Shown here: positions 12,278-64,000 of the stretch, one piece after another
Layout: every line of letters begins with the position of its first letter
Numbering within the stretch: position 1 is the stretch's first letter
Program-made: the position numbers and the translations under genes
The notes under the pieces: generated by a model
Told to the model about the DNA's origin: nothing
Seen by the model: only the letters and a program-made list of their open reading frames with translations
The model's database searches: none
Source of the DNA: Candidatus Babeliales bacterium
GTDB lineage: Bacteria > Babelota > Babeliae > Babelales > JANWKD01
Assembly (NCBI GenBank): GCA_963762115.1
Contig: CAVXJH010000005.1
Location: forward strand, 64,001 to 128,000
DNA length: 64,000 nucleotides
Reading direction: 5' to 3'

Positions 12278-12895
12278 CTATGATACATAATTCTTGCAAA
12301 GCCGCGCAATTCCTATGGAACCTGCAGCGATAGCAAAAGATACTGGAATTAATGCTGATGTTATATACTGAACCTTCTTGTGCATCTTCTCTTCTTCAAG
12401 ATTCTTCTCAAACTCTTCATCTTCTTCATCAACTACTTTTTTTTCAGAAATATACCCTTGATTTTCATGCCAAATTAACGAATCAGCAAGTTGCTTAGAA
12501 TCTGATTTCTCTAGTGCCATAAACCCTTGCTCTAACTTTGTATATAACATTGTCAACGCACTATGAGCCAAAAGACCTAATCCGCCAATTGCCAGACAAT
12601 TTTTAATTGAAAAATCTAATCTAGATGACTTAGTGCCAATAAGAGCAGCGCCAAAAAAGGGAAGCGATGATAAAGCTCCGCACATAAAATCTTTTTTTAT
12701 AGTCCCATGCCAGTTAGGCAAACCATGTATTTTCTTTAAAAAGCAACTCGATGCTGTAGCCAAACCTGCTGCCATCATTGTAGCTACGGGCGCTACATTA
12801 TGTTTTATAGCCGCACCAGCAGTTTCCATGCCACTTGCCCTATTAAAAACACAAATAGAAACAAATAGCCATACGATCAATTTTTTATTCTTCAC
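12278..12895 (-). CDS. Hypothetical exported membrane protein (SP-ME class)
   Basis: Signal peptide then ASG|METAG; several hydrophobic segments. Confidence 0.65.
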   Translation of the reverse strand: MKNKKLIVWLFVSICVFNRASGMETAGAAIKHNVAPVATMMAAGLATASSCFLKKIHGLPNWHGTIKKDFMCGALSSLPFFGAALIGTKSSRLDFSIKNCLAIGGLGLLAHSALTMLYTKLEQGFMALEKSDSKQLADSLIWHENQGYISEKKVVDEEDEEFEKNLEEEKMHKKVQYITSALIPVSFAIAAGSIGIARLCKNYVS

Positions 12896-12974
12896 GATAA
12901 TAACCCCCTTAAACCATAATTTTGATATAACCTCTATATTCTATTATACCATAAATATTTTTTTTGAAATGCCC

Positions 12975-13679
12975 CTATTTTTTGCGCATTTTTTGCAATT
13001 CAACACAAGATTCTGTATTTCCATGCCTCGTGCACGATCTTTTTTTATTTTGCAAATTCGATCGCCAATATTTTTCAGGAAGAGGAAGATAATAACGAGG
13101 CCCAATGATTTTCTCTAGAATCCAATATTGTTCTATTTTTTTAGGTTCTTCTTTAGGATATTTTTCTTGCAATCGTTTATATTTACTTCTAACTGTTTTT
13201 ACCCGGCATTCCACGTATCGTTTCAAACCATCAACATCTGCCGTTGATTGGCATTCCATTTGTTTTAATTTTTTCATTTCGCGTTCTTTTGCTTTTTGTA
13301 AACGCTTAGTGCGTTCTTGCACAAGATGCTGCTTAATATCATTAGTGATGCCAGGAAAGTATTTATCAAGAAACATTGGTACCTTACCAAACGTTAGTGG
13401 CGTCTTTTCTTTTTTTTCAATCTGCTGCATAGCTTTTTCTATCTCAGAGAAATAACTCAGTTCTCTTTCGATTATTTTTTCTGATATAAAACATGCTTCC
13501 TCTGTACCTTCAATACATTCCCTGTTCAATGCAACGAGCCCGTATTTTTCAAGTTCAGCTTCGAAAGCTTCTAGTGTTGCAAATCTTTTTTTACATTCAT
13601 ACATGTCTTCCCATGTTATGCCAAAAGCATTATAAGCAGCTAAACACATAATACTCATCACTAAACAATATTTTTTCAC
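12975..13679 (-). CDS. Hypothetical exported protein
   Basis: Signal peptide, charged helical body; 4-nt overlap with upstream gene. Confidence 0.65.
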   Translation of the reverse strand: MKKYCLVMSIMCLAAYNAFGITWEDMYECKKRFATLEAFEAELEKYGLVALNRECIEGTEEACFISEKIIERELSYFSEIEKAMQQIEKKEKTPLTFGKVPMFLDKYFPGITNDIKQHLVQERTKRLQKAKEREMKKLKQMECQSTADVDGLKRYVECRVKTVRSKYKRLQEKYPKEEPKKIEQYWILEKIIGPRYYLPLPEKYWRSNLQNKKRSCTRHGNTESCVELQKMRKK

Positions 13680-14464
13680 AGAGAACCTTTCACAGGTAAA
13701 GTAAATTTTTCAACACAATCTTTTTCTAATGCTTCAACAGAACTAAACAACAAACCTTGCATCTTTATTTCAGGTTGCTGCGCAGCACTGACATTTGTAT
13801 CAATAAGTATTAATTCAGGTGCATCACTAGGTTTATATTTTTCATTAATCATAGAGCGCAGTTCATGATAATACTCTTTCTGGAGTTTATGCATTTTTAT
13901 ACCCGAAACAAAAAGCACGTCATCAAACAAATCAAAAATATCTTTATGAATTTGCTTGTTGTAATCACAGCTTTCTTTCATCATTGAAGTGGTAAAAACA
14001 AGCTTTATACCCTGCAGTTTCAATTTTTTTAATACCTCAATAAGTTCCTCATCAGGTTCTTCTAAAGTAATAAAATTATAAATTTCATCCTTATATTTTT
14101 GTAGTTCTCGAAACTCTTTCAACACAATGCCTACCGATAATTTCTGTCCACGCAATTTTTTATAAGCAAGCACAAGTGCCACCCGTAACAACATGGGAAA
14201 TTCACGTTGATGTTTCACCAAAAACACAAATGCTTCACGCGGCTTTTTCCATCGTTTGTTATGAAAAACAAGAGCCTCATCAATAACAACAATCTTTGCA
14301 TGATCCAACTCTTGCACACAAAAAATTGTTTGCGCAACAAACAAAAAAAATAAGAAAAATCTAACACATTCTTTTTTTATCATCATACAATAATCCCTTT
14401 TCTCATTAGAAAAGCCCTGGAGGTTATCCAGGGCTTCAATTACTTTTTTATTTTTTACAATCAC
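13676..14464 (-). CDS. Degenerate HAD-like exported protein
   Basis: ELIEVLKKLK..GIKLV.TTS, IFDLFD, LIDT; paralogous to 11432 and 14470 ORFs; true start may be internal. Confidence 0.6.
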   Translation of the reverse strand: MIVKNKKVIEALDNLQGFSNEKRDYCMMIKKECVRFFLFFLFVAQTIFCVQELDHAKIVVIDEALVFHNKRWKKPREAFVFLVKHQREFPMLLRVALVLAYKKLRGQKLSVGIVLKEFRELQKYKDEIYNFITLEEPDEELIEVLKKLKLQGIKLVFTTSMMKESCDYNKQIHKDIFDLFDDVLFVSGIKMHKLQKEYYHELRSMINEKYKPSDAPELILIDTNVSAAQQPEIKMQGLLFSSVEALEKDCVEKFTLPVKGSL

Positions 14465-15351: not shown

Positions 15352-15855
15352 TTAAACTACTGATTCATCTTGGCTTACTTGAAAATGCATTGATTGCCTT
15401 TGTTTTTCTGCTTGTCGCCCGCGAACCCAATTTGTTATGGCCGCACCACAGCCATAGGTGCAAACCCCTAACGCACAAATGCCAAGTCCAACGGTTGTTC
15501 CTGCCATTATTGGCGTTGCATGATCATTATCATCAGTTTTATAATCATCAACAAGAAGTACTGTTGCCCATTCTCCTAGACCAGCTGCTATTGTTGTGCC
15601 AACACATAAGCCTGTCGTACAAAGACCAGAAAAAATTTTGCAACCCAATGACATTGACGGCAATTCTTGCTTAGGTTTTTTAACCTTTTTTAAATAAATA
15701 TGGGCGCCATGTTCTAACCCACTGTTAAGCTTATATTGATCATCAATAACTACTTCAAAAAGTTGACCTTTTTCCCCATCATCTTCTTGCATAGCAAAAG
15801 TTGTTGTTATAGAGAAAAATGCACACATCAAGCCACCAAAAAATACCATTTTCAT
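15352..15855 (-). CDS. Hypothetical exported protein with hydrophobic hairpin (SP-MQ class)
   Basis: MKMVFF...TFA|MQEDD; two Gly/Cys-rich TM segments; start moved from 15897. Confidence 0.65.
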   Translation of the reverse strand: MKMVFFGGLMCAFFSITTTFAMQEDDGEKGQLFEVVIDDQYKLNSGLEHGAHIYLKKVKKPKQELPSMSLGCKIFSGLCTTGLCVGTTIAAGLGEWATVLLVDDYKTDDNDHATPIMAGTTVGLGICALGVCTYGCGAAITNWVRGRQAEKQRQSMHFQVSQDESVV

Positions 15856-27943: not shown

Positions 27944-28711
27944 ATGAAAACAGCAAAAAAACTCTTAAGCCTATTTTTTTTATTGACCACTTTACCTCTT
28001 GCAGCAATGGAGGAGACCAGATCTTTAAAACAAAGATTTGATAGCAATATTAACTGGAATCCAAGCACTGAAAGCATGTATAGCTCAGCAGAAGCAACGC
28101 TTCGTGATAAATTACTTGAAATATATCAACTCATCGAAGATATTTTAACTAAAAAAGCCATGGGTGATAACTCTTTCAGCTGGGATCAAATAAACAACCT
28201 GAAGAGAAACCGCAATAAAATTCGAGAAGCATATGAAGATGAAAAAGGAAAGAGACAAGAAAAAGAAAAAAAAGCAGCTCAACCAAGAATAGAAGCCGAA
28301 CGTAAAAAACAACAAGAAGGAGCCGCAAAACAACGGCGTGAATTCGAAGAACGAGCGAGAGCACCACGAACAACTCCTCTTGATCAACAATCTATGCAAA
28401 ATGTCATGAACGAATATTTTAAAACTAATGGCGATAATCCTACCATCAACGAAGCTCTAGCAATGAAACAAGAAAATATTAAAGGAAGTTTAAACTATTT
28501 CTTACCGTTTAAAAGAAGAAACGATCATTCTTATTATAAAACAAATATAACAACAAACCAGCTCAAGCAATTAATTAATGATATACAAGTTGCTCAAATA
28601 AATGGCTTATTGTCTGAGATTACCCAAAATGACATTAATGATTTACAATCTATGCTAAAAGACTCAGAGGAAGAAGATATATTTTTTGCTTCACGAACTC
28701 GTCGAAAATAA
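27944..28711 (+). CDS. Hypothetical exported coiled-coil protein (SP-ME class)
   Basis: ggag RBS; PLAA|MEETR. Confidence 0.7.
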   Translation: MKTAKKLLSLFFLLTTLPLAAMEETRSLKQRFDSNINWNPSTESMYSSAEATLRDKLLEIYQLIEDILTKKAMGDNSFSWDQINNLKRNRNKIREAYEDEKGKRQEKEKKAAQPRIEAERKKQQEGAAKQRREFEERARAPRTTPLDQQSMQNVMNEYFKTNGDNPTINEALAMKQENIKGSLNYFLPFKRRNDHSYYKTNITTNQLKQLINDIQVAQINGLLSEITQNDINDLQSMLKDSEEEDIFFASRTRRK

Positions 28712-28770: not shown

Positions 28771-30210
28771 TTAACAAACAACCGTTCTTGTATCAACAGC
28801 CTTTTTGCAGGTTTTACCCAAATACAAGGCAATAAAGAACCAAACAATGACAAAAGCAAAACCAAAATACGCGGTCATCAAAATATGATACATCTGCCCT
28901 GCATGAGCACCCATACTGAGCTGCAAAGGTTTAAGCAGCATATTATAAAAACCGCCCCCTTGCCGCGCAGATCGCGAGCCAAATGTCTCAATCCATGCCT
29001 GTGCTTTAAAACGCACATCATGTGTTGTGGGAATATAGAGCTGCTTCACCGCGGGAACATTGAGTGCATAATTAAATGCCTTTGAACCAACCATTAACCA
29101 GAAAAGGAAGGTAAGATGATGAACGGTTACAAAACCAAAAATAGCACAACCAAGAATAATGGGCATAAGTGCTAATGAAACACCAAGCCCAAAAAATCTG
29201 GTAATCCGATTAATACCAAGCACCAAACAAAGCAAGGTTATTAAACTAACCATGCTACTATAGGTGCCGATATATTCAACTAATGCCAATCCGCAAAATT
29301 TTTCAGCCGCCATACATTTGAAATGAAAATCAAAAATCTGCGTTAACATCTCAAAGAAAAACATCATAGTGAAAATACATAATAAATAACGATGTTGCAC
29401 CAAAAGTTTCAGACCTTCAAAAAAACCTGGTTCTTGTTTTTCAGCAACTTGTTCCTCATTAACGCCATGGAAAGATTGCAAGAAATGTTTTGGTGTAGTC
29501 GCTAAGAAATAACGTAATAAAAATAAAGCACTCATTAAAAGAAAAGCACAACTCATGACCGAAAGACCACACGTCTGAAAACCAAAATAACGAGGAATTT
29601 TACTAATTAAAATAGGACTTACAATGCCACCCAATTGTCCAAGGGCCACAACTAATGAAAAACCTTTTTTTGCTGATTCGGGTTGCGTTGTATCAACAGC
29701 AATTGACCAGAATAATGCCACCATTAACGAGCCATAACTTTCCACAACCGCATAATAGGCATACCCAAGAAACTGTGTCCCCCAAGCAGCCCACCCTGTT
29801 CTTGCTGCAATAATAGCAGAATCAGCTTCTCCAATAACACCATTCATGATAAGAAGAGCAAAAAGAAAGGTAACAACGGTATACCCTATAGAAAGCATAT
29901 AAAAAAGCCTCTCTCGTGAAAGATAATCAAGAAGGCGGGAATATATCATAAGCATAGGAACAAGGCATATTAGCGAGGTTGCCTTTGCATAGGGAAGCAT
30001 TGCCGAGCCTACCAAAGTACTAATAAGAGCTTCTTTCACCGTGCCCAAGGTCCAATATGAACCAATAATAGCACTGAAAACAGCACCCATTTTAAGGAAT
30101 TTTTTGAATTCTTCGCGCTCGAATGAGCCAAAAAGAGGAGAAAAAACATTTTGGAAAAAAGTAATTATCATTGAATCTTTCTTTACAAGAAATTGAGGTG
30201 GAAGAATCAT
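28771..30210 (-). CDS. NTT/TLC-family nucleotide (ATP/ADP) transporter
   Basis: FEREEFKKFL N-terminus, ESYGSL..ALFW, K...Y.LN.P..QLYIPT..D.RFKAQAWI; ~12 TM. Confidence 0.88.
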   Translation of the reverse strand: MILPPQFLVKKDSMIITFFQNVFSPLFGSFEREEFKKFLKMGAVFSAIIGSYWTLGTVKEALISTLVGSAMLPYAKATSLICLVPMLMIYSRLLDYLSRERLFYMLSIGYTVVTFLFALLIMNGVIGEADSAIIAARTGWAAWGTQFLGYAYYAVVESYGSLMVALFWSIAVDTTQPESAKKGFSLVVALGQLGGIVSPILISKIPRYFGFQTCGLSVMSCAFLLMSALFLLRYFLATTPKHFLQSFHGVNEEQVAEKQEPGFFEGLKLLVQHRYLLCIFTMMFFFEMLTQIFDFHFKCMAAEKFCGLALVEYIGTYSSMVSLITLLCLVLGINRITRFFGLGVSLALMPIILGCAIFGFVTVHHLTFLFWLMVGSKAFNYALNVPAVKQLYIPTTHDVRFKAQAWIETFGSRSARQGGGFYNMLLKPLQLSMGAHAGQMYHILMTAYFGFAFVIVWFFIALYLGKTCKKAVDTRTVVC

Positions 30211-30388: not shown

Positions 30389-31825
30389 TTATACATTTTC
30401 AGGGTCTTGATCAAACTTAACTTGACCGGGTATAAACTGATGCTGTGCAACAATCATTCTAGAATACCCCATCCCTAATTCTAGGCCACCCCAAAATGCT
30501 GTAAATCCTAAACAAGCAAATCGAGGAGTAGCACCACTGCTTAACGTATTCAATGCTTTATAGGCAAGGTCATAAAAAGAAATTTCTGGATCCATGTATT
30601 TATTCCAAAGCACTGCTGCAAAACCACCTATTCCTAATCCGAGACTAAAGGTTCCTATTCCCTCACCTAATCCTTTTAAACCCTGCATTAAAGTATATTT
30701 ATTCATCAAGGCCTTTATCCGATGTCGTTGACCTTCTAATAGTGTTGGCAATGTTGCACGTAATGCAATCTGTTTTGATTCTGTAGAAAGTGGATTATTG
30801 GTTAAATCAACATAGGAGTGCTCACCAGCTTTAAATGAAGGCAAATCTTTTATTTGGTTATTGTTAAGAAATAACCAAAACTCATATTCTAATTCTCTTG
30901 GCAATACAAGACTTTCAATAACATTCTCACTTGCAAAAAATTTTCTCAAAAAAGGAAAATGTTCGCGCAATTGAGCAACGTCGAGATTTTTTAGTTTATT
31001 TTTATTCAAATTAAGACTAACAACACAAACATTTTCATATTCTTTAGCGAGTAATGCAATGCCATCTAACATATCAATTTTTTGATCATGTATCACAAGA
31101 TCGGCATAGTCAATATCATTATCATTGTTATGACGTACATGACAAAGCACTTTTAAAGCGCCGCTGTTATATAAGCTGCGTATTGAATTTAAATAATGAC
31201 TACATTGCACCAATTCAGGTTGCTCATCATGCGATAAGATATTTTGTGCATGCAATGTTAATTTACGCATTATCTTTTGTGGCGCACCTAAATAATGCCC
31301 TACTTCAAAAACACGAATCAACGATTCTTTATCAAGTTTTTTTATTTCTCTCTTATGAGCAATACAGTTAAAAACTGTTTTTAAGGTTTCAGCACTAAGA
31401 TCAAGGTCAGCTTTACCAGCATTTCCACCATCTTCACAAAATTGCCCTAAAGTAAAATCAAATGTTTTACCCTCAGATGTTTTATCCACAGAAGAATATT
31501 CTTTTTCACCCTCAGGAGCACTTTCTTCTTGAGCATAGTGTAAATAACCTTCAATCAGGACTGATTGCCTGGCAATATACTCTGGAACACCAATTACATT
31601 GCCATCAGTGCCACGAATTGCAATTGTTTGCCCTGGCTTTTGAAATTGACCCTGGCTTGGCATCTGAATTTCTTTTATACTTTGATTATCAATATCACTA
31701 ACTGCACGAATTTGCCTCAAATATGGAAATGATTCAAGCAACCTAGTAACTTCTGGCTGTTCCATTGCCATTAAACCTGAAGAAATCAGGGCAAGAGTTA
31801 AGAATAAATATCTTTTTTTGAACAT
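30389..31825 (-). CDS. Exported Skp1/BTB-like + LRR protein with C-terminal TM hairpin
   Basis: IAIRGTDGNV..V...IARQS.LI, L..VF.C, L.RVFE..HYLG; LxLxxNxL repeats. Confidence 0.75.
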   Translation of the reverse strand: MFKKRYLFLTLALISSGLMAMEQPEVTRLLESFPYLRQIRAVSDIDNQSIKEIQMPSQGQFQKPGQTIAIRGTDGNVIGVPEYIARQSVLIEGYLHYAQEESAPEGEKEYSSVDKTSEGKTFDFTLGQFCEDGGNAGKADLDLSAETLKTVFNCIAHKREIKKLDKESLIRVFEVGHYLGAPQKIMRKLTLHAQNILSHDEQPELVQCSHYLNSIRSLYNSGALKVLCHVRHNNDNDIDYADLVIHDQKIDMLDGIALLAKEYENVCVVSLNLNKNKLKNLDVAQLREHFPFLRKFFASENVIESLVLPRELEYEFWLFLNNNQIKDLPSFKAGEHSYVDLTNNPLSTESKQIALRATLPTLLEGQRHRIKALMNKYTLMQGLKGLGEGIGTFSLGLGIGGFAAVLWNKYMDPEISFYDLAYKALNTLSSGATPRFACLGFTAFWGGLELGMGYSRMIVAQHQFIPGQVKFDQDPENV

Positions 31826-31922: not shown

Positions 31923-33242
31923 CTAGAAATTTTCCTGTTGCTGATTATCAATCAAAACCTGACCAGGTTTATATTGATGCACGAGATTATTAGGATAACT
32001 GCTTTTATACCCATAATAAATACCCCAAATGCCAAACCCCATACTTAAAGCAACCACTAACCTATGCGTATTTTTATACTCATAAGCAATACATGCGCAT
32101 GCAAGGTCACTTAAAGGATATTCTGAATGCAAAAATTTTTCTCTCATAATATCTATACAAACACCTAAGGACGATCCAAAAACACAAGCCCCCAAACCAA
32201 TACCCAAAAACCTAGACCCATTTAATAATGTATTCCCATCGAAGAATGTCTTTATTCGATGCCGATTCTTCTCTAAAAAACTTGGCATTACAGCAGATAA
32301 AGCAATATTGATTGCCTGACCGGAAAGAGGATTATTGCGTAAATCAACAAGGCCATTTTCGCCAACTTTAAAATGCGGCAACTCTTTTATTTTATTATCA
32401 TTCAAAAGCACAACAGCACCATCAGGTAGCCTTCTTGGCAAAAATAGTTTTTTTCCATGATTGCCGCTCATATGAATTTCATTCACCCCAGGAAAAGTGC
32501 TAAACAAATGCGTAACATCAAGAATTTTTAAATTATTCTTATCAAAAGAAATGCCCTTAATCGTTGCACGCCCATATTCTTCTGCTACCAATTCAATGCC
32601 TTTTAGTGTATCAAGATCTTGACCCTCAATAAAAAGAACACAAGAATCATTATCATCTAAATCAGTTCCTAAGCGATGTATTTTTAAAGCGCCTTCATGG
32701 CGCAAACTACGTAGTGAATTCAAAAACCATCCGGATTTTACGTATTCAGGTTGCTCATGAGAAAGTAAAACTCTTTGTGCTTGATAGGTTAATTTTCGCA
32801 TAACATTTTTTGGAGCACCCAAAAAATCAGTCGCATCAAAAACACGAACTAATGCTTCTTTTGTGTCAATTTTTTTTATTTCTTTGAGATCTGCAATACA
32901 ACTAAAAACTGCTTTTAACGTATCAGCACTCAGATCAAGCGGTTCAAGTTCATCATCTGCACCAACATCATGAAAAATACCGTCATAATTCCCAAATGGT
33001 GGAGTGAAATCTACTATGTGCCCATCAAATGAACATTCCTTTTCACCTGCAGGAGCTGCATCTTCGTGAGCATCACCAAAACAATTGCGAATTGTGCTTG
33101 CTTGCATTGCAACATACCGAGGAACGCCTATCACATTTCCATCAGTACAACGAATTGCAATTGTTGACTTTGGCTTTTCCATTGCATGAGAAAAAAATAC
33201 ACTCAACATACAAACAAAAAATAATTGCTTTTTTAAAAACAT
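31923..33242 (-). CDS. Exported Skp1/BTB-like + LRR protein, paralog 2
   Basis: Same architecture; SHA|MEK; ATG at 33242. Confidence 0.75.
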   Translation of the reverse strand: MFLKKQLFFVCMLSVFFSHAMEKPKSTIAIRCTDGNVIGVPRYVAMQASTIRNCFGDAHEDAAPAGEKECSFDGHIVDFTPPFGNYDGIFHDVGADDELEPLDLSADTLKAVFSCIADLKEIKKIDTKEALVRVFDATDFLGAPKNVMRKLTYQAQRVLLSHEQPEYVKSGWFLNSLRSLRHEGALKIHRLGTDLDDNDSCVLFIEGQDLDTLKGIELVAEEYGRATIKGISFDKNNLKILDVTHLFSTFPGVNEIHMSGNHGKKLFLPRRLPDGAVVLLNDNKIKELPHFKVGENGLVDLRNNPLSGQAINIALSAVMPSFLEKNRHRIKTFFDGNTLLNGSRFLGIGLGACVFGSSLGVCIDIMREKFLHSEYPLSDLACACIAYEYKNTHRLVVALSMGFGIWGIYYGYKSSYPNNLVHQYKPGQVLIDNQQQENF

Positions 33243-37608: not shown

Positions 37609-38451
37609 ATGTCAAAATTCTTACTTGTTTTAACGCTATTTTTCTCATGCACTACTACAAAGACTATGGAAGAAGATGAAATAACCAGCGAACATAAAGA
37701 AACAATAGTTGAACATGAACTATTAGCGACCCGCATGGCTAACTTTGTTGAGAATATTTATAATCTGCGCGACACGATCGTGGCAAGACCCTTGCGCGTG
37801 GAAGATTTTATTTATGCACAGAACAATGCTGAATGGAGCGACCTGCGAGAGCTCAACAAAAAAGTGAAAAAAAGATGCTCATGCAAAATGCCAAAATTAC
37901 TCAGAAAATATCAAGAACAAACAAAAGTACAAATCGACTTATTCAAACGAGGCGTTTCATTATTAGATAATGAAGAATTCAGAACCACCATACAAGACAA
38001 AATTACAAAAAAACCAGTGCAAACTTTTTTCATTGAAAAAGTTTGTCGACAAAAAAAAATGACTCCAACCAAATGGTTAGGATTACGAACAATTGCTTTA
38101 AGTAGCCTACGAGAAAAACTCAAAGAAAAAACCACAAAAGAACAAATCTTCAGTTGTGTTGATCAAGCACCGCCCTATGTTAGCGGTTTGGGATGCGGCG
38201 TTGGCCTCATGGCACTTTTCACCCCTTTATGGCCTTATGGCGCCACTATTATTGGCGTTAGTTCTTGTATTTGTTTGACATGCCAACATGAGATATACGA
38301 TACTTGCAAGTCTCATTCTCTCTATTGCAGCAATCATGATATTGATAATAAATTGCAAAGAACCATACAGCTCTTACAATTTAATGAAGAAAAAATACAG
38401 CCCAATACATCAGGTAAAAACATCGAAAAAGAACACTTGCTACAAAATTAA
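37609..38451 (+). CDS. Hypothetical exported protein with late hydrophobic hairpin (SP-ME class)
   Basis: TTKT|MEEDE; GLGCGVGLMALFTPLWPYGATIIGV segment. Confidence 0.65.
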   Translation: MSKFLLVLTLFFSCTTTKTMEEDEITSEHKETIVEHELLATRMANFVENIYNLRDTIVARPLRVEDFIYAQNNAEWSDLRELNKKVKKRCSCKMPKLLRKYQEQTKVQIDLFKRGVSLLDNEEFRTTIQDKITKKPVQTFFIEKVCRQKKMTPTKWLGLRTIALSSLREKLKEKTTKEQIFSCVDQAPPYVSGLGCGVGLMALFTPLWPYGATIIGVSSCICLTCQHEIYDTCKSHSLYCSNHDIDNKLQRTIQLLQFNEEKIQPNTSGKNIEKEHLLQN

Positions 38452-45224: not shown

Positions 45225-46625
45225 ATGATTATGATCAAAAAGATACCATTTTTCTCACTCTTTATTCTCCTTTTTTTAGGCACAATCTATACCCAACGAC
45301 ACACAAACAAATCATTAATCCCGCAAGTTAAAAAAACCACTTTTTTCAAAGCTCAAAATCTTAAAGATCAACGCCTCTTTAAAAAAATAATGAGTGATGT
45401 AGGAAAAAAATATAAAAATGATAAAAAAGCATATTATACTTTTATAACAAAAAAAAATGATGATGGCATGACGCCGCTCATGATTGCTTCAGTAACCTTT
45501 GACACAGAACAAGTTATTTTCTTACTTGATGAAATAGCAAAATATTATGGCAATAAAAAAACAAGCGAAGACAAAAAACAAATTTTTAATTATCTCGATT
45601 CACGTGGTCCAGAAGGTAATTCTGCATTTTTTTTCGCAACACAAAATGGTGATTATAAAACTATTAAGGCAATGATTAAACGCGTGCCAAAAATGTTAGA
45701 TGATAAACAATTATTTCTTAAATTTTTGACGGCAACGACCTATTCAGATAAATGGACTCCCTTACATTGGTTGGTTTACGACGGTGCAACCCAGACATTA
45801 GAATATCTAGTCACTTCAGCTGAAAAAATTCTTGGAAAACATTCACCAGAATTTGATGCATTCATAAATCCAATAAACGAAGATGGCGGAACACCGCTTA
45901 ATTATGCACTCAAAGGCAATAATAGAAAATTCCTTTTAGAACAAGGCGCAAACACTATTCATCCATTCAATCAAGATATTCAAGATGCACGTGCATTGTC
46001 GACACAATTCTTAGAAGCTCTTCATGATGCTGCATTTGGCAAAATGCAAAAAATCATGTATCAAGCTCAAGAAAAATTTCAATCAAATCCAAATCTATTT
46101 TACGAATTCATCACCGCAAAAGATGATGCTGGATGGGACCTTTTAATGCATGCCGTCACCCAAGGACGTTATGAATATGTCGCTTTCATACTCTATGCGA
46201 CAGAAAAATATTTTCATAATAAATCACAATATATTTATGATGTATTAAGCAGTGTTGCAATAGATGGCAATAGCCCTTTACTGCTTGCAATATTACGCAG
46301 AAATTTTGAAATCGCTAAACTGCTTATCGAAAAAATAAAAAAATATTCAAAAAATAAATATTTTTTTTACATGATCATGAATACAACAAATTATCCAAAG
46401 GGATTAACACCACTCTTTGCAACGGTTTTCTTTGGATCTGATAAAGATGAATTTTATGATACAAGCAAATTAATATTAGAATCTATTGCAGAGCGATTCG
46501 GCAAAGTTTCCCATGTCATGGATCTTTTTGTCAATAAAAGAAACTTGGATGGGTTTACGGCACTTTCCTATGCTTCTTCGGATAAATTAAAAAAATTATT
46601 GCGAGAGTATGGTGGGCATGAATGA
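45225..46625 (+). CDS. Exported ankyrin-repeat protein
   Basis: GMTPLMIA, WTPLHW, GGTPLNYA, GNSPLLLA, GLTPLF, GFTALSYA. Confidence 0.88.
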   Translation: MIMIKKIPFFSLFILLFLGTIYTQRHTNKSLIPQVKKTTFFKAQNLKDQRLFKKIMSDVGKKYKNDKKAYYTFITKKNDDGMTPLMIASVTFDTEQVIFLLDEIAKYYGNKKTSEDKKQIFNYLDSRGPEGNSAFFFATQNGDYKTIKAMIKRVPKMLDDKQLFLKFLTATTYSDKWTPLHWLVYDGATQTLEYLVTSAEKILGKHSPEFDAFINPINEDGGTPLNYALKGNNRKFLLEQGANTIHPFNQDIQDARALSTQFLEALHDAAFGKMQKIMYQAQEKFQSNPNLFYEFITAKDDAGWDLLMHAVTQGRYEYVAFILYATEKYFHNKSQYIYDVLSSVAIDGNSPLLLAILRRNFEIAKLLIEKIKKYSKNKYFFYMIMNTTNYPKGLTPLFATVFFGSDKDEFYDTSKLILESIAERFGKVSHVMDLFVNKRNLDGFTALSYASSDKLKKLLREYGGHE

Positions 46626-50677: not shown

Positions 50678-52327
50678 ATGGCAGGAAAACGTATCGTTTT
50701 TGGCGTGGAAGCCCGCGGAAAAATTCGTGATGGTGTTGACATATTGGCTGATGCCGTAAAAGTCACCCTCGGACCTCGGGGTCGCAATGTTGCTTTTGAA
50801 AAAGCATTTGGCTCACCAACAATCACCAAAGATGGTGTTACTGTTGCAAAAGAAATTGAACTTCCCAATAAACTTGAAAACATGGGCGCACAAATGGTGC
50901 GTGAAGTTGCTAGCAAAACTGCTGAAGTAGCTGGTGATGGCACCACAACAGCAACAGTTTTAGCGCAAGCAATTTTCCGCGAAGGTAACAAATATGTTAC
51001 TGCAGGCGCAAATCCAATGGAATTAAAACGCGGCATCGACAAAGCTGTGCATGCTGTTGTTGAATTCATTAAAAATAATGCAAAAAAAGTAAGTTCAAAA
51101 AAAGAAATTGAACAAGTTGCAACGATTTCTGCAAATTCTGATACCATTATTGGTCAACAAATTGCTGAAGCAATGGACCGTGTAGGCCGCGATGGCGTTA
51201 TCACCGTTGAAGAAGCAAAAGGCATGGAAGATTCATTAGAAGTTGTTGAAGGTATGCAATTTGATCGTGGTTATCTTTCACCTTATTTCATCACTGATGC
51301 AGAAAAAATGGAAACGGTGTTACATGATGCAATGATTCTTCTTTATGAAAAGAAGATCAGCAGCATGAAGAGCTTGTTACCTCTTCTTGAACAAGTTGCA
51401 CGTTCTGGTCGTCCACTTTTGATTATTGCTGAAGATGTTGAAGGCGAAGCTCTTGCAACGCTTGTAGTGAACAAAATTCGCGGCACTCTTAATGTTGCTG
51501 CGGTAAAAGCTCCTGGCTTTGGTGATCGTCGCAAAGCGATGTTAGAAGATATCGCCATGTTAACCGGCGGTAAATTAATTACTGAAGATATCGGCATCAA
51601 GCTTGAGAACGTTACCTTGGATGATCTTGGTCATGCAAAAAAAATAGTAATCACCAAAGATACCTGCACCATTATTGAAGGCCAAGGAAGCTCTGAGAGC
51701 ATTAAAGGACGTATTGCATTAATCAAAGCGCAAATCGAAGCAACAGCTTCTGATTACGACAAAGAAAAATTGCAAGAACGCCTTGCCAAACTTGCTGGCG
51801 GTGTTGCTGTCATCAAAGTTGGTGCTGCAACTGAAACAGAAATGAAAGAAAAAAAAGATCGCATCGACGATGCATTGAATGCAACCAGAGCTGCTGTTGA
51901 AGAAGGTGTTGTTGCTGGTGGCGGTGTTCTTTATATCAGAGCACAAGAATCTGTAAACGCACTTAAACTTGAAGGCGATGAGAAATTTGGTGCACAAATT
52001 GTTGCACGTGCTTTAGAAGAACCTTTGCGAGTAATCGTATCTAATGCGGGCGACGAAGCATCAGTTATTGTCAATCGCATAAAAAACGAAAAAGGCACTA
52101 TTGGTTATGATGCAAAAAACAGCAAATTCGTTGATATGTTCGAAGCTGGCATCATCGATCCAGCCAAGGTTGAGCGCACTGCATTGCAAAATGCTGCATC
52201 AATCGCTGGTCTTTTGTTAACAACAGAAGTTACCATTTCTGATTTGCCCGATGACAAAAAAGAATCGCAAGGTCACGCTGGCATGCCTCCAATGGGTGGT
52301 ATGGGCGGCATGGGTGGCATGTATTAA
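50678..52327 (+). CDS. groEL: Chaperonin GroEL
   Basis: [29 protein letters not shown] tail; aggag RBS before ATG 50678. Confidence 0.98.
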
Positions 52328-53811: not shown

Positions 53812-53817
53812 AAAGAT

Positions 53818-53880: not shown

Positions 53881-54651
53881 TCATTTCATATAATAATGCA
53901 TAAGCGCTGCATTAACTTCTTCTGCTTCATTATAATTTTTTGCATCAAGCAATTTTTGTGAAAAATCAAAATAAAATTCCACGATCCTTCGTTTAAAATG
54001 GTGGTTATCTTCAGGTTTATCCAAATAACTCAATGCCTTTATAAGGTATGGCTGTCTTTCAAAAAGTTCCTGTTTAACGCTCTTATAGCTTTCTTCATAT
54101 AACTGCTGAAGTAAAAAATTCAGATTTATATCAATATTCATTTTTGCATTCAAAGCACATTGCCTTAAAAAAGTTTCACTTTTATCAACTGAAAGCTTCC
54201 TTGTTGGTTCCAGTTCCCCGTTACATAACACGCTTATAGGCGATTCATTATTATTTGAAAAACCTGTATTACTCAATTGCTGCAGAGAATTCTTACCTAA
54301 ATTTTCTCTATTACTTTCACTTAGCTTAGATTTTTGTTCTTTACGAAATTTTACTACTGCATCTAAGCCTGCAGTATCATACATATATCTCTCAAATGGA
54401 TCTTCCAGTATTTCATACGCCTCTTTCAATTGCGCATGTTGCTCTTCAGCTTCTTCATAAACAGTAAAGGGCAATCTCATGGTAATTCGAAGATACTCTT
54501 GAGTATAAATACGAAAACTCTTTACTACTGCTTCATGATTTGCATCTTTGTTAAGTCCCAAACGAACATATAAATCATCATTATGGTGTTCCATAGCGTT
54601 TAAGATTTTGAAAAAGATTAAAACAAAAATAAAAATTATTTTTCTGCTCAT
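53881..54651 (-). CDS. Exported J-domain-like protein lacking HPD
   Basis: DLY..LGL..DA...., L.EAYEIL.DP..R..YD..G. Confidence 0.75.
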   Translation of the reverse strand: MSRKIIFIFVLIFFKILNAMEHHNDDLYVRLGLNKDANHEAVVKSFRIYTQEYLRITMRLPFTVYEEAEEQHAQLKEAYEILEDPFERYMYDTAGLDAVVKFRKEQKSKLSESNRENLGKNSLQQLSNTGFSNNNESPISVLCNGELEPTRKLSVDKSETFLRQCALNAKMNIDINLNFLLQQLYEESYKSVKQELFERQPYLIKALSYLDKPEDNHHFKRRIVEFYFDFSQKLLDAKNYNEAEEVNAALMHYYMK

Positions 54652-54774: not shown

Positions 54775-55317
54775 TTATGTATTCTTTAAAAATTCTGGTA
54801 AATCAGAAAGACCTTCATTCAAAAAATCTATATTTTCTTCCATTTCTGTTATATCGATTATTTCTTTATCAAATGTATCATGATGAATATTTTCAGTTGT
54901 TTGATTTTGTTGCAATGCATCTAATGGCATCATTGGTATCAACTTCACGCTAGGATTCAATAACTGTGCAACATATGACATATGTTCATAAAATTCATTT
55001 GGCTCTTTCACTTCAGAAGTAGTCAATCCCATCTTCTCATCATAGGCTTTCCTCTTTTGCCGATCTGATAGAATATTGTATGCCATTCTAATAGTATCAA
55101 ATTTTTCCTCGACTTTTTCATCTATTACATTTAAAGATTGCATCGTTTTATGCAAAAAATATTTTGTTAACCTAAGGTAACGTTTCTCTATTGCATAAGG
55201 AGTTGCATTACGAGCAACCCCCAAAATTTTATATAAATTAATTTCCTTTTGCTGCTCCATAGCTATCAAGCCTATAGAACAAGTCAAAAAAGCTAAAAAT
55301 AACATTATTTTCTTCAT
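54775..55317 (-). CDS. Exported J-domain-like protein lacking HPD
   Basis: NLYKILGV.RNA...I...Y, F..I..AY.ILSD..KR..YD. Confidence 0.78.
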   Translation of the reverse strand: MKKIMLFLAFLTCSIGLIAMEQQKEINLYKILGVARNATPYAIEKRYLRLTKYFLHKTMQSLNVIDEKVEEKFDTIRMAYNILSDRQKRKAYDEKMGLTTSEVKEPNEFYEHMSYVAQLLNPSVKLIPMMPLDALQQNQTTENIHHDTFDKEIIDITEMEENIDFLNEGLSDLPEFLKNT

Positions 55318-55387
55318 AAGAGTCCCTATTAAAAACTATACTTCAATATAAAATGAACAAAAAAATGATGTACAACAAACATATCAA

Positions 55388-57673
55388 TTACAATGATAAA
55401 TCAATGACGTCTCCCAATATATCTTGCGTATCTTGCTCAGAAAGACCTTCTTGATTAGACAAATCTTGCGCTAATTGGGCTTGTACTTTTATTGCATTTA
55501 ATTTTTCGGTCAAAATACCTGTTTGATAAGTGGTTAGTGCAGCATCAATAACTTGAATTGCATTGTCATAACGATTTTCTTGAAGCAATTCCCTGGCAAA
55601 ATTAAGATAAAAACCAATAATTTCTTGTTCTAATCCATTTCTATAATGAGGTTCTAGATTAGATATTAATCGTATAAAATGTTGTTGTTCTGCTAAAAGA
55701 GCTGATTGAACATAAGAAATGGTTTTATTACTGCATCTCATTACATGCACACTAGTTTGTAATACTTCCAATTTCTTTAAAACTTCATTAGCAGTAGAAC
55801 TAACAAAACGATAAAGATGAACCGCTTCTATTCTTTGTAAGGCAGAAGGCTCACTCCATTTGACACCACAAACATATTCCAAAAGATCATGCGCTCCATT
55901 GATGATACCGTTATTGTATAAAGTAGTAAAAAATTTAAAACAATTATCAAACGCCTCATATTGTAAATCTAAAGGAATTTCTAAAAAATTCTTCATCGTA
56001 TCAACGAATTTTATCGATGGGTTAAAACGATATTGATCTATTAATGCTTTAATTCGGTTATGATAGTTATCTATTTTCTGAGAATAAAATCCCTTTTCCT
56101 TATCCATTGATAATGCTATTTGAAGTGTTATTAGACAACTGTTAGCATTCTTGATCCTATCTTGAACATCAACATAATTTCTATTTTTGGTATCGATATC
56201 ATTTTTTCCTTCAAGACGAATAATATTTTGTAATTGAAAACATTTTTTTTTAAATTCATCATTACTCGCTGCATAAGAACTCCGACAAAGATTCTGAATA
56301 ATTCTCATAGCTTCATTAAATTTTTTATTTTTAGCCAATCGTTCAGCAAGTAAATAACTAAATTTAAAAACATAATCATTAAGATAAGTAAGCTTGAATT
56401 CCATTACATGCTTACAAAAAAGAAGTAACCCTTTATGCACAAAATCAAGTGGCATTGTTGAATTAGCAAAAGAAAAATTCAAATACCCCAAATCATTATA
56501 CCAACCCATTAAAATGTTTTTTATGTTTCCTTGAGCTTTTTCCACTTCCAATTGCCATACCTTGTCTTCTTCACTCTGAAAAGATGAAACATGTTTTAAA
56601 ACTTCACCACATAATTCATAGGCACTCTGAACAAAAAATAAAAAATCTGGTTGATTTTCATGCTTCTGATAAAGCATTTCAGCAGCATTAAAAGCAAGTC
56701 TAAGAAATTCTTTTTTTGCTTCTAAAAAGTTAGGATTGACTCTCAGCTCAGAAGATCTTTCAGAAATATAATATTTATTTGCAACATTTTTAAATTTTTC
56801 ATGAAAAAACAATGGATCAATTTTTTGAGTTTTAGCGAGCTCTGTTTCCCGGCGTAAATCAGCATTAGCCTCTTGCACTGCTTCAATAGTTGCTTTAACA
56901 TTTTTTGGATCTACAATTTTTCTTTTTTTCACAGGAGGAGCATGTTTTTTCATTGCTTCTTCAATCAACCGTTTTTCACGTGATTGAGCATAAGTAGCAT
57001 GAACTGCTGGTGTATTATTTTTTTGCACATATAATGCATACAAATTTTTTAATCTATCAGCAAAGTCTGTTTCTGAACCCACATACCGTAGCCCATTGGC
57101 AATATAACACTTTGCCTCATCAATACAATCTCTTTCATATAACAATTGAGCAAATTGAAGACAATTTTCTAAAAAATTCACCCTAAGTGCTTTGCAACAA
57201 TCATCATCATTATTATTCATTATATATTGTCTATATAATTCATTGGCAGCATCAATCTCAGGTTTCAATACATTAATATCGGGTTGCATAGAAAAAATAC
57301 TTCTAATTTTTGTTTGATACGCATCTCTTTTATGCAGAATATCTTCAAACGCAACCTTTTGGGCAACATTATCACGATTATGTAAGTCGTAATACCTTTT
57401 CCAATGATCACCATATTTATCATAAAAGTTTCTTTTTTCAGGATCACGCAAAACATCATGAGCATTATTTATCTCTTTAAATATCTCTCCCCCATAAAGA
57501 TTTTTACTAGGATGATATTGTTTTGCTAAAGCACGGTATTTTTCCTTAATGCTTTCTTGATTTGCAGTTCTTTCAACACCTAAAATAGTATAATAATCTC
57601 TCGGTTGCCCCTCCATGCCTTGTAACCCTTTAAAACAGGCTAAAAAGAGTAAAAAAACTATTGTTTTTTTCAT
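55388..57673 (-). CDS. Exported J-domain (HPS variant) protein with helical repeats and NLS-like motif
   Basis: DYYTILGV...YRALAKQYHPSKN...FKEINNAHDVL.DPEKR.FYDKYG; PPVKKRKI; start moved to 57673. Confidence 0.82.
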   Translation of the reverse strand: MKKTIVFLLFLACFKGLQGMEGQPRDYYTILGVERTANQESIKEKYRALAKQYHPSKNLYGGEIFKEINNAHDVLRDPEKRNFYDKYGDHWKRYYDLHNRDNVAQKVAFEDILHKRDAYQTKIRSIFSMQPDINVLKPEIDAANELYRQYIMNNNDDDCCKALRVNFLENCLQFAQLLYERDCIDEAKCYIANGLRYVGSETDFADRLKNLYALYVQKNNTPAVHATYAQSREKRLIEEAMKKHAPPVKKRKIVDPKNVKATIEAVQEANADLRRETELAKTQKIDPLFFHEKFKNVANKYYISERSSELRVNPNFLEAKKEFLRLAFNAAEMLYQKHENQPDFLFFVQSAYELCGEVLKHVSSFQSEEDKVWQLEVEKAQGNIKNILMGWYNDLGYLNFSFANSTMPLDFVHKGLLLFCKHVMEFKLTYLNDYVFKFSYLLAERLAKNKKFNEAMRIIQNLCRSSYAASNDEFKKKCFQLQNIIRLEGKNDIDTKNRNYVDVQDRIKNANSCLITLQIALSMDKEKGFYSQKIDNYHNRIKALIDQYRFNPSIKFVDTMKNFLEIPLDLQYEAFDNCFKFFTTLYNNGIINGAHDLLEYVCGVKWSEPSALQRIEAVHLYRFVSSTANEVLKKLEVLQTSVHVMRCSNKTISYVQSALLAEQQHFIRLISNLEPHYRNGLEQEIIGFYLNFARELLQENRYDNAIQVIDAALTTYQTGILTEKLNAIKVQAQLAQDLSNQEGLSEQDTQDILGDVIDLSL

Positions 57674-57936
57674 AAAACCCCTAAAAATCATATTTTTTAT
57701 AGTAGTATAATCAAATTTACATAATTTCATTATAGCTATTTATTTATATTTGTCAATTTTAAAAAAAATAAATAAAAAAATTAACCAATAAGTAAGCCAT
57801 AATCATTATGGAAACCAAAGCTCGATTTAATTGACAAATAACGGCTGATCATTATATTGTGACTAAGATTCCTAAAAAGAGTCTTCTAGAGCTGCTACCT
57901 TAAGCAAAGCAACTTTTATCTTGACTAGGAGAATCT

Positions 57937-62839: not shown

Positions 62840-63111
62840 AATGATTGCATAGGTAAAATTTTAATCTGCTTTCTGTCCAATTTTTGCATCTTTAATTCAC
62901 CCTGGGCATATTCTTGAATATGCGCACGATTTTGCAATAAACATAGTTGTGCGCGTATATGTTCTTTGTTTTTTATAAGAGCAACTTTTTGTTTTTCATA
63001 TGTTTGTTTTTGAAAAGAAAGTTGTATCATTACACTATTTTTATACACTAAAAAAAATATAAAAAATAGATTAGTACCCAAAAAAAGTGTTATGAAATAT
63101 GCTTTTTTCAT
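62836..63111 (-). CDS. ftsL: FtsL-like cell-division protein
   Basis: TM + coiled coil + I..YA..ELKM; 4-nt overlap with ftsI. Confidence 0.6.
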   Translation of the reverse strand: MKKAYFITLFLGTNLFFIFFLVYKNSVMIQLSFQKQTYEKQKVALIKNKEHIRAQLCLLQNRAHIQEYAQGELKMQKLDRKQIKILPMQSL

Positions 63112-63282
63112 GCGAAGGTAATCCTTTTTTATTGTTTTTTTTCTTTTTAAGTCTAAAATACTCCATTCATTTTTTTAAAGAGATTTTTTACACATCCCTC
63201 CATTTTCATAAGCAACATAAAGACTTCACTTGAATTTTAATGCATAAAAATGCTACAAATAACTCAAGAGAACTAGGGGAAA

Positions 63283-64000
63283 ATGCTCTTGGGGGGCAAG
63301 AAAATGATCTTTATTTTCTTTTATAAAAAAAACATCATTCTGCTCATTTTTTTCCTGACGGGAAATAGCGTAATGCTTTTAAGTATGCAAAATGATGATG
63401 AACTGTTATTAAGAAATTTAGCAATAACTCCTCCAATAGAAAAAAGTATCTTAACAAACTCACAAGCTCGCGGTGCTCTCATAAAAAAAAATCAAAAAAA
63501 AAGAAAAAAACGCAGAACCAGAAAAGAATATCAATTAAAAGAAAAAAAGACCTCAAGCGGTGAAAGCAGTTTTGAATTCACTGAAGAGGATATTCATCCT
63601 GATGCTTTTGATCCAACCAAAAAAATTCAGGATTATACCGCCTTCATAAAAGATCTTGAATCCCTTATTCAAAAAAATAATATTTTGGAATATTGCAATC
63701 AAATGAATCATCTGGCCAATCAAATTGCAGATCTTGAGCCACAACAACAGCTTGAAAAATATTTTACTCTTTTATTAAATAATCTAAATTCTGAAGCAGA
63801 AATAATACATTATTTTTGCCTTACTATCATAAAAATATACTCAAGTCATTTCAAGGAACATGACAAAAAAAAACTACTCAAAACCCGTATTAGTGACCTT
63901 TTTGAAACTTTTGTTTTACCCCTTACGCACCCCAAAGCTCAAAAAAAATTAGAGCAAGTCATGCAAAAATTTATGTCATTACATCAAAGTAATATTCATG
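63283..64000 (+). CDS. Partial ORF running off the window: exported protein with polybasic tract (SP-MQ class)
   Basis: Frame open 63283-64000; ...SVMLLS|MQNDD...KKNQKKRKKRRTRK. Confidence 0.7.
   Translation, partial: MLLGGKKMIFIFFYKKNIILLIFFLTGNSVMLLSMQNDDELLLRNLAITPPIEKSILTNSQARGALIKKNQKKRKKRRTRKEYQLKEKKTSSGESSFEFTEEDIHPDAFDPTKKIQDYTAFIKDLESLIQKNNILEYCNQMNHLANQIADLEPQQQLEKYFTLLLNNLNSEAEIIHYFCLTIIKIYSSHFKEHDKKKLLKTRISDLFETFVLPLTHPKAQKKLEQVMQKFMSLHQSNIH

Follow-up and report, generated by a model that had tools for sequence, protein, structure and literature searches.

In Bacteroidetes, the Q-rule designates a phylum-specific residue that was recognised by genome-wide counting right after the Sec/signal peptidase I site and that, in the available text of the two reports (PMC5837995, PMC10653852), was shown to stabilise exported proteins. 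In Plasmodium, hundreds of unrelated host-directed PEXEL proteins have E, Q or D at position 2 of the mature chain, whose end is N-acetylated (PMC10653839, in excerpt). Phytoplasmas are intracellular bacteria with Sec-exported effectors; their phyllogens need to cross only one bacterial membrane, by Sec, to enter host cells and, in 21 entries of one supplement, bear Met-Asn or Met-Asp right after the leader (PMC8026896, in excerpt).

A very large share of Babelota genes encodes exported proteins without assigned function (44% of Chromulinavorax CDS have published signal sequences), only Sec and type II secretion have been reported, and so far no criterion tells effectors bound for the host apart from proteins of the envelope. 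In the Babeliales genome studied here, 253 of 745 signal-like ORFs place a small residue, then Met, then mostly E, Q, D, N or H at a signal peptidase site that, like the leaders, was predicted by a heuristic of our own rather than by SignalP; 22 more candidate ORFs missed by the heuristic, most of them plausible, lie outside these counts. The 253 proteins make up 173 cargo clusters and 198 signal-peptide clusters. Their leaders combine a basic n-region, a hydrophobic h-region and small residues at -3 and -1, as befits Sec/signal peptidase I substrates under this heuristic, and the predicted cuts fall directly before the Met. No earlier account of a Met-Glu junction rule was found in the literature searched, and the portions of published work on other endosymbionts that were checked contain no similar motif.

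An initial annotation of the window, the 64-kb stretch of DNA analysed here, had listed twelve such junctions. All are present in the sequence as written, in 12 of the 40 signal-like ORFs of the window, but the positions attached to them mark the low ends of the ORFs: nine genes lie on the minus strand and have the junction at the other end. Four are tandem minus-strand paralogs (slashes mark the predicted cut; the ATG is that of the junction Met). The first, 30389..31825 (478 aa, LMA/MEQ, ATG 31765), has a predicted Skp1-like domain, LRR and C-terminal helices; the others are 31923..33242 (439 aa, SHA/MEK, ATG 33182), 33275..34588 (437 aa, VYG/MEQ, ATG 34510) and 34600..35787 (395 aa, MHG/MEE, ATG 35721, the second Met, computed by hand, with an alternative cut, C/MH, two residues earlier). 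The Skp1-LRR label holds weakly, the best Foldseek E being 3.5e-3, with Skp1 chains filling most top ranks, and the LRR Pfam E about 0.01. The J-domain label was borne out in three minus-strand genes with this domain at the N-terminus: 53881..54651 (256 aa, LNA/MEH, ATG 54594), 54775..55317 (180 aa, LIA/MEQ, ATG 55260) and 55388..57673 (761 aa, LQG/MEG, ATG 57616). A WD40 propeller protein of 547 aa starts at 63304 on the plus strand (63304..64000, LLS/MQN, ATG 63385) and runs past the window end to G000:C5:128947, G000 being this genome.

The remaining four have no significant family match. Two on the minus strand, 12278..12895 (205 aa, ASG/MET, ATG 12829) and 15352..15855 (167 aa from its ATG start, TFA/MQE, ATG 15792), each have a later hydrophobic stretch, a single one in the second; two are on the plus strand, 27944..28711 (255 aa, LAA/MEE, ATG 28007) and 37609..38451 (280 aa, TKT/MEE, ATG 37666), the latter with Thr at -1, the rarest form (18/290). 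As had been claimed, two M3 peptidases (560..4739, plus), a GH1 glycosidase (9958..11427, minus) and barrel-like proteins lack the motif, the peptidases and the glycosidase despite signal-like starts. A counter-example had been overlooked: an ankyrin-repeat protein (45225..46625, plus) whose start is signal-like but whose junction lacks Met. The window also holds groEL (50678..52327, plus), by which the genome was assigned to Babeliales. An NTP/NDP exchange transporter-like gene (28771..30210, minus; TIGR00769, with a score under the cut-off) would fit a parasite that draws energy from inside its host cell.

The enrichment predicted for the motif was found genome-wide. Met-Glu follows a small residue in 150 of 674 proteins as against 9.8 in composition-preserving shuffles, about 15-fold. 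In the same 674, Met-Gln (35 observed, 6.7 shuffled), Met-Asp (25, 4.7), Met-His (17, 2.7) and Met-Asn (18, 6.4) are also enriched, whereas Met-Lys (9, 7.6), Met-Ser (10, 9.5) and Met-Ala (4, 7.3) are not. Glu preceded by L, I, V, F, A, S or T stays at shuffle level, so that among the residues compared only Met is enriched at +1; a general aliphatic preference was rejected, L, I and V not being enriched. With a scorer that saw only positions -14 to -1, and was thus blind to Met, Met stands at +1 in 159 of 551 sites (29%; background Met frequency 1.8%), followed by D, E, N or Q in 131 of the 159 and by His in nine. Counting one protein per cluster, +2 is E in 97, Q in 21, D in 19, N in 16, H in 12 and K in 8. 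Lys is scarce at +2 and common at +3 (15%); as it also lies one transition from Glu, its lack at +2 would not be a simple charge effect. In a tandem family, +2 switches among Q, E, N and H, +3 is free to vary and both synonymous codons are in use. Upstream, -1 is A (42%), G (24%), S (17%), C (10%) or T (6%), partly fixed by the class definition, and -3 is L (34%), S (15%), A (12%), I (11%), T (8%) or V (8%).

The proposed split between eukaryote-like and housekeeping cargo holds beyond the window. The motif occurs in 42 of 54 ankyrin, WD40, J-domain and RING proteins and in 3 of 64 envelope proteins and hydrolases, in groups drawn by hand after the Pfam results were seen, with paralogs that are not independent; many of the envelope proteins, as lipoproteins or uncleaved anchors, had no way of displaying it. 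Motif proteins were scanned with Pfam as their first 600 residues and 420 of 424 non-motif proteins as their first 520; the Pfam scan of contigs excluded C2, C4 and the last part of C5. Of the 253 motif proteins, 201 have no Pfam match at 1e-6. C-terminal CaaX prenylation sites are found in 14 of the 253 (0.4 expected) versus 3 of 424 non-motif proteins (by cluster, 9/173 versus 2/346, p=0.001), which independently supports a destination in the host cytosol. NLS-like stretches number 35 in motif proteins (21.6 shuffled), with no excess in non-motif proteins. Host-type cargo does not require the motif: signal-like starts that lack it occur in eleven ankyrin and three CaaX proteins, a ubiquitin hydrolase, an HDAC-like protein and a MavL-like one, several of them with apparent E, N, Q, K, Y or H ends. 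BamA of this genome has Met-Gln at its junction, as have two relatives near theirs; a conserved BamA motif was rejected, the count being 3 of the 28 N-termini read.

Within Babelota the motif recurs in a large number of lineages, though some lack it. It was absent from 139 signal-like proteins of other phyla, and sampled genomes of four Babelota families rich in signal-like proteins show it in 1/38 (f5), 1/43 (f6), 0/29 (f12) and 1/20 (f13); the clade-2 sample is small. Scanning 185,579 genomes with one strict pattern, which variants in Holosporales, Chlamydiae or others would escape, gave 74 loci, 16 of them, from 12 genomes, with two or more motif ORFs. Five of the 12 genomes are named Babeliales or Dependentiae and seven are placed there by GroEL (75-83% identity, 68% for one of them, genome G032). 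Within the reach of this pattern, convergence in a second phylum was rejected, as the genomes labelled Pseudomonadota fall in Babeliales by GroEL. An internal GGGD(T/S)AMEE stretch, which we take to be thioredoxin-reductase-like, accounts for about one DNA-pattern match in each genome.

We favour, with confidence about evenly balanced, the reading that the mature N-terminus was selected to escape host N-degron pathways, possibly with acetylation by NatB, and that the proteins act in the cytosol of the protist host. Translation begins upstream, at the basic, hydrophobic and small-residue leader. The product would be exported by Sec, be cut by signal peptidase I just before the Met (two lepB genes are present), cross the outer membrane through a two-secretin type II system or in vesicles, and pass any vacuole membrane by a further route. 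In the host, ends starting with R/K/H, F/W/Y/L/I or D/E/N/Q/C would enter the Arg/N-degron pathway and unacetylated G/A/S/T/C ends the GASTC pathway; Met before a small residue would be clipped by MetAP, and Met before a hydrophobic or basic residue would be a UBR target. With the other end types thus exposed to degradation or clipping, Met-D/E/N/Q would be left as the safest end, NatB acetylation being a possible extra and not required. Cleavage before Met would in this way yield a mature end resembling that of a typical cytosolic protein of eukaryotes, and the Met-Asn and Met-Asp ends of phytoplasma phyllogens count in favour of this reading. NatB substrates start with Met followed by D, E, N or Q, which the junctions match, with His in addition.

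The available part of one review of the N-degron rules (PMC11735805) notes that signal peptidases generate Arg/N-degron targets and names Met-Gln as a NatB substrate. It describes NatB as co-translational, so that imported proteins would need post-translational action. It also groups Met-His with NatC-type ends, recognised by UBR proteins when unacetylated, and states that, in fly and mouse, UBR1/UBR4 may also bind NatB-type ends that lack the acetyl group. The six-fold enrichment of Met-His, not a NatB-type end, speaks against the N-degron reading. So does the published growth of Babela massiliensis inside a vacuole, from which arrival in the cytosol needs an extra step. Host-type cargo without the motif, the BamA junction and the low-motif families f5, f6, f12 and f13 were counted on the same side. 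Host mimicry or a second export step, proposed in the initial annotation, withstood all three refuting conditions set there (cuts away from the Met, no enrichment, the Met as true start) and is partly supported: it gains from the enrichment, the cargo split and CaaX and loses by the motif not being obligatory, by Met-His and by BamA. Motif proteins are likely candidate effectors.

The main rival, which is compatible with N-degron escape and which we regard as possible though doubtful, is that the bacterium itself reads the Met-E/Q/D/N/H end as a sorting code for a second step, the reader being perhaps a periplasmic chaperone, one of two type II secretins or a vacuole translocon. The sharp two-residue specificity, His included, would suit a polar binding pocket better than NatB, and residues +3 to +12 are richer in E, K and Q (30% versus 22%). 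One locus of the genome combines GspC- and PilM-like genes with two GspD-like secretins, and a GspE-like ATPase and prepilin-type genes lie elsewhere; type II is the only secretion system reported in Babela, and two gspD copies occur across the phylum (published). Type II systems are, however, believed to recognise their cargo by folded surfaces rather than by linear ends. In the excerpt of PMC10653839, mature ends made by signal peptidase suffice for export in Plasmodium, though two reporters could do without the E/Q/D residue. Non-motif CaaX and ankyrin proteins presumably leave the cell too, motif and non-motif paralogs are mixed in 18 of 173 clusters, BamA bears the motif and the low-motif lineages belong to the same order, all of which argue against such a code.

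A tentative combination, which we rate as rather unlikely, would have the end serve twice: as a linear sorting code that takes Sec-exported effectors through the two-secretin type II system and on across the vacuole, with a cap added by an N-acetyltransferase of the host or by a membrane-anchored one of the bacterium, and as N-degron camouflage, a counterpart of PEXEL reached independently by Babelota, phytoplasma phyllogens and malaria parasites.

It is improbable that the Met-X end is instead, much as in the Q-rule, acetylated outside the cytoplasm by a bacterial N-acetyltransferase and so shielded from aminopeptidases. The candidate enzyme, encoded at G000:C6:47313-47894, is a GNAT present in one copy and predicted to be anchored in the membrane by its N-terminus; basic residues ahead of its hydrophobic helix predict an outward-facing domain, and its nearest matches include RimI and Nat catalytic subunits; these matches are 12-21% identical and equally include small-molecule acetyltransferases, and Atlas and Foldseek comparisons did not narrow its substrate. 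Of 151 Babelota genomes, 124 encode the anchored GNAT, among them all those sampled from 11 families. DNA-pattern counts, which leave out the forward strand, where overlapping starts repeat, average 3.07 against 0.66 for the control in 123 relatives with GNAT and 1.33 against 1.07 in 27 without; since each group is a clade of its own, the correlation amounts to one event. Families f5, f6 and f13 have GNAT and little motif. A required partnership was rejected on genome G032, where 15 of 142 signal-like proteins carry the motif and the GNAT profile finds no match at 1e-8 (its GroEL, at 68% identity, has Babeliales as nearest named matches). We know of no acetyl-CoA in the periplasm, and a capping rule should not spare periplasmic residents.

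Equally improbable is a purely historical or enzymatic origin with no role after export: a shuffled Met-Glu leader cassette, a leader placed before the old start of a captured gene, or a LepB paralog preferring Met at P1'. Motif genes do cluster (87 adjacent pairs, 44 shuffled), some tandem genes share leaders, a threonine-aldolase-like protein has its junction Met about at the start of the enzyme domain, and the two lepB genes are in tandem. Old start codons, though, would yield Met-Lys, -Ile, -Asn or -Ser (cytosolic starts are K 25, I 17, N 14, S 11 and E 5 of 151), and the leaders have diverged into 198 clusters with Met-Glu kept. A dedicated second signal peptidase was rejected, since lepB copy number does not track the motif: G049, G050, G103, G146 and G156 have one match and high motif counts. 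The co-occurrence with CaaX is also left unaccounted for.

That the Met is the real start and the leader merely AT-rich upstream DNA in frame is hardly credible, even though, at 34% GC, the genome does yield some false leaders under the heuristic (for example on PolA and LigD-like genes): Shine-Dalgarno-like sites precede the upstream start in 186 of 253 cases and the junction ATG in 5 of 253 (random internal ATGs, 76/1077), on which ground the junction Met was rejected as the start, leaders vary synonymously among paralogs, and several Babela massiliensis proteins with the same junction carry published SignalP calls (sums of 1-3 in 6 of 7 rows seen, which bear on leader presence, not cut site).

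The two-residue rule supplies a list of candidates, about 250 here, and a marker for comparing lineages and hosts. It also opens to testing the general question of how proteins that a bacterial signal peptidase has set free escape the N-degron surveillance of eukaryotes. Were it a true sorting code, it would provide a linear signal for a type II-based route, of which we know none.

Set beside the known systems, the junction resembles the Q-rule in its place after the Sec/signal peptidase I site and its discovery by counting. As far as the available text goes (PMC5837995, PMC10653852), the Q-rule has Gln at +1 with no +2 preference, covers more than half of signal peptidase I substrates in every compartment and has a dedicated glutaminyl cyclase; here +1 is Met and +2 follows a strict rule, roughly one substrate in three is covered with a bias to host-type cargo, and there is a candidate GNAT only. 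Gln at +1 accounts for about 4% of the Met-blind sites and the compartments are unequal (42/54 versus 3/64), which places the junction outside the Q-rule. The PEXEL-type E, Q or D at mature position 2 is found in 122 of the 159 Met-blind sites with Met at +1. PEXEL, as excerpted from PMC10653839, belongs to a eukaryotic parasite, is cut by plasmepsin V after RxL, leaves position 1 free and leads to export by PTEX, whereas Babeliales are bacteria with position 1 fixed as Met, no RxL (Arg is not among the top -3 residues, and -1 is small) and no known translocon. Phytoplasma SVM leaders (PF12113) form one homologous family, unlike the diverse leaders of Babelota, and the SAP11 entries have Ser or Ala at the junction place (PMC8026896, in excerpt); membership of PF12113 was rejected, with 0 matches at E<=1 in this genome. 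Legionella AnkB, in the accessible parts of PMC2916131 and PMC5506055, is likewise a bacterial ankyrin protein that borrows host prenylation through a C-terminal CaaX; effectors of its type reach the host through type IV secretion and have no cleaved leader, whereas here a leader is joined to an N-terminal rule. The CaaX comparison supports the destination of the motif proteins rather than the N-terminal rule itself.

The twelve junctions that the initial annotation had noted in the window, each a small residue followed by Met and Glu or Gln at the predicted signal peptidase I site, are all present in the sequence; the positions given for them are the low ends of the ORFs and not the junction sites. 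Using our own ORF caller and a heuristic, which makes signal-like status a prediction, 745 of 1467 ORFs in the genome containing the window were called signal-like. A small residue, Met and E, D, Q or N end the hydrophobic region in 229 ORFs (253 when His and Lys are also allowed). In signal-like ORFs Met-[EDQN] is strongly concentrated at residues 19-25, and its distribution in the other 722 is flat. A scorer blind to position +1 found Met at that position in 159/551 sites (background frequency 1.8%), and the residues following these 159 Mets were E (92), Q (19), D (11), N (9), H (9), K (5) and 14 others. Enrichment of M[E/Q/D] over background, suggested originally as a check, was evident against shuffles within the same 15-residue window (n = 674; observed/shuffled): ME 150/9.8, MQ 35/6.7, MD 25/4.7, MH 17/2.7 and MN 18/6.4. 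No such excess was seen for MK (9/7.6), MS (10/9.5) or MA (4/7.3), nor for other +1 residues with Glu (LE 15/15.7, IE 11/10.7, VE 6/8.0). The rule is real and genome-wide, and almost certainly the junction motif is a selected feature.

The initial annotation had allowed that the junction Met might be the true translation start, but it is not. A Shine-Dalgarno-like site precedes the upstream start in 186 of the 253 motif genes (start choice favoured such sites) and the junction ATG in only 5; proportionally more internal ATGs have one (76/1077). True cytosolic starts read Met-Glu in 5 of 151 cases. Paralogy was likewise rejected as an explanation, the 253 proteins forming 173 cargo clusters (138 singletons) and 198 leader clusters. 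The +2 residue is encoded by varying synonymous codons and, in one tandem family, alternates between Q, E, N and H with +3 unconstrained. These sequence patterns point to selection acting on the protein end.

Pfam searches (1e-6) covered all 253 motif proteins and 420 of the 424 non-motif signal-like proteins. The former comprise 23 ankyrin, 14 WD40-type, 4 J-domain, 1 RING and 1 Sel1/TPR proteins, 6 normally cytosolic enzymes, 3 envelope proteins and 201 without a match; the latter include 11 ankyrin proteins, 1 WD40-type (with Met-Ser), 34 envelope proteins and 27 hydrolases or beta-helix proteins. The proposed split between host-type and envelope cargo thus extends genome-wide: the motif is carried by 42/54 ankyrin/WD40/J/RING proteins versus 3/64 envelope and hydrolase proteins, in groups that are hand-drawn, contain non-independent kin and include many envelope lipoproteins or anchors. 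A BatC-like TPR protein with Thr-Met-Gln is a possible fourth envelope case. Independently of Pfam, a C-terminal CaaX box ends 14 of 253 motif proteins (0.4 expected), 3/424 non-motif signal-like and 2/618 cytosolic proteins; by cluster, the figures are 9/173 motif versus 2/346 non-motif. Smaller samples from relatives gave 2/82 motif and 2/557 non-motif proteins with a CaaX box. Many of the nineteen CaaX proteins of this genome, 14 with the motif, have basic residues just before the box (examples at C3:515706, C5:50552, C6:42247, C6:400668 and C7:108966). The consulted portions of work on Legionella AnkB describe prenylation of CaaX effectors by the host (PMC2916131, PMC5506055). Since the motif is missing from some host-type proteins (three with CaaX boxes and others of ankyrin, ubiquitin-hydrolase, HDAC-like and MavL-like type), 18 clusters contain members with and without it, and BamA has Met-Gln here and, near the junction, in 2 of 27 relatives read, the motif is a strong marker and not a requirement. 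It very probably marks mainly host-directed proteins.

Several loci merit description. The four paralogs at window 30389-35787 gave a model of pLDDT 72 whose best structural matches, all weak, are Skp1 chains and LRR proteins; with L093:5466-7028 and L097:13850-16899 they belong to a seven-member family with a predicted Skp1-like domain, LRR and C-terminal hydrophobic helices. A Skp1 mimic in place of an F-box protein, if true, would be an unusual way of engaging cullin ligases. Immediately behind groES-groEL come three J-domain genes of the exported type and two signal-bearing unknowns (window 52424-57730). Window 6050-9655 encodes an MscS-type channel of 1201 aa whose start is signal-like and whose N-terminal region is very long. 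Window 21219-22214, with a shorter same-start copy at C6:255136-255801, and 47192-48580 are presumably transposase genes. Signal-like starts, some possibly miscalled, also occur on normally cytosolic or eukaryote-type enzymes: threonine aldolase-like (L112:6976), thymidylate synthase-like (L130:9955), CPT kinase (L128:14178), glucokinase (L125:10458), glutamine synthetase (L123:11106), HDAC (L107:6003), DOT1-like (L088:16436), ubiquitin hydrolase (L131:11774), MavL-like (L108:13819) and NCA2 (L084:12629). Signal-bearing DXD glycosyltransferases (L138:4519-5871, L153:9291-10124; best match Gly_transf_sug, TcdA/TcdB-domain weaker) sit in clusters with methyl- and sulfotransferases. At C6:348543-361607 (L132, L133), ~15 paralogs stand in a tandem array; their leaders are almost the same, and they match no Pfam family. 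Two contig ends, C3:586002 and C6:584669, have identical gene starts, a possible overlap or recent duplication.

The genome (1.53 Mb, 34% GC) belongs to the Babelota (Dependentiae, TM6), a group of protist intracellular parasites. As far as the portions consulted go, Chromulinavorax has signal sequences on 44% of CDS and 78% of ankyrin proteins (PMC6561590), type II is the sole secretion system reported for Babela (PMC4378268), and the phylum has two gspD copies and a degenerate outer membrane (PMC4776705). Here, C6:205033-213982 carries two GspD-like secretins with GspC- and PilM-like genes, and a GspE-like ATPase and prepilin-type genes are also encoded, all matches scoring below NCBIfam cut-offs. 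Two signal peptidase I genes (lepB) lie in tandem at C3:457976-459744 (L099, L100); in the sample of the phylum each genome has 1-4 lepB matches, frequently in tandem.

Among relatives, 80-kb samples gave motif/signal-like counts of 6/29 (G003), 5/36 (G004), 7/29 (G020), 6/40 (G022), 7/30 (G113), 4/41 (G014), 2/33 (G021), 1/20 (G016), 1/43 (G009) and 1/38 (G008); G032 gave 15/142 (400 kb), and G075 and G099 0/29 (100 kb). Six richer genomes, grouped after the counts were known, pooled to ME 17/2.1, MD 7/1.0, MN 6/1.5 and MQ 5/1.6 (observed/shuffled), and the deep branch to ME 6/1.0, MQ 5/1.3 and MD 5/1.0. A DNA pattern for the motif matched in 149/151 genomes, ~1 match per genome being background, with at least 4 on one strand in 39/150 relatives. 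In cultured Babela massiliensis, at least five ankyrin proteins, at least one Fic protein and at least one unknown share the junction among the supplement rows listed. In other phyla, flanks of 58 loci with matched ORFs removed gave 0/139. Four loci labelled "uncultured Pseudomonadota" (L031, L040, L068, L071) are Babelota by GroEL.

We infer the cleavage, export route, acetylation and stability of the motif proteins. In the consulted portions of PMC11735805, Arg/N-degrons are basic and bulky hydrophobic ends, to which D/E/N/Q/C ends are convertible; GASTC degrons are unacetylated G/A/S/T/C ends; N-terminal Met is clipped only ahead of small residues; unacetylated Met-hydrophobic or Met-basic ends are UBR targets; and signal peptidases are named among the sources of degron ends. 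Elimination of the other ends by these rules leaves Met-D/E/N/Q as the least exposed. This is the NatB class. Because the observed +2 residues fit this set, His excepted, we rank first, at about even chances, the reading that cleavage before Met would leave an N-terminus camouflaged from host-cytosol N-degron surveillance.

A PEXEL-like sorting code, ranked second, is possible though doubtful: PEXEL proteins also have E/Q/D at position 2, and their ends are acetylated, yet two reporters could do without the E/Q/D residue, in the portions consulted (PMC10653839). Ranked third, and unlikely, is bacterial capping resembling the Q-rule. The candidate enzyme for this is a RimI/Nat-like GNAT, predicted to carry an N-in membrane anchor; in its position it is comparable to the Q-rule's anchored glutaminyl cyclase. 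It occurs in 124/151 Babelota genomes, throughout the sampled members of 11 families and in no member of 7 others, and is a core gene of one clade; this profile did not find it in 27 genomes of the other. Here it is single-copy (C6:47313-47894; L245:1414-1995), its domain predicted to face outward. However, G032 has the motif without the GNAT, three families have the GNAT and little motif, and the fold gives no indication of substrate. History or peptidase preference, fourth, is improbable.

No account of this rule was found in a literature search that included Babelota papers but reached few subscription papers or preprint supplements; an earlier mention may exist. The Q-rule, a phylum-specific Gln after signal peptidase I with a role in stabilisation, is a precedent in the portions consulted (PMC5837995, PMC10653852); it differs in using Gln, being compartment-blind and being enzyme-backed. 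Phytoplasma phyllogens have Met-Asn/Asp after the leader (21 supplement entries, one family only), and SAP11 entries do not (PMC8026896; 12/26 supplements searched). The Babelota motif fails a defining test of membership in each of the Q-rule, PEXEL and phytoplasma systems.
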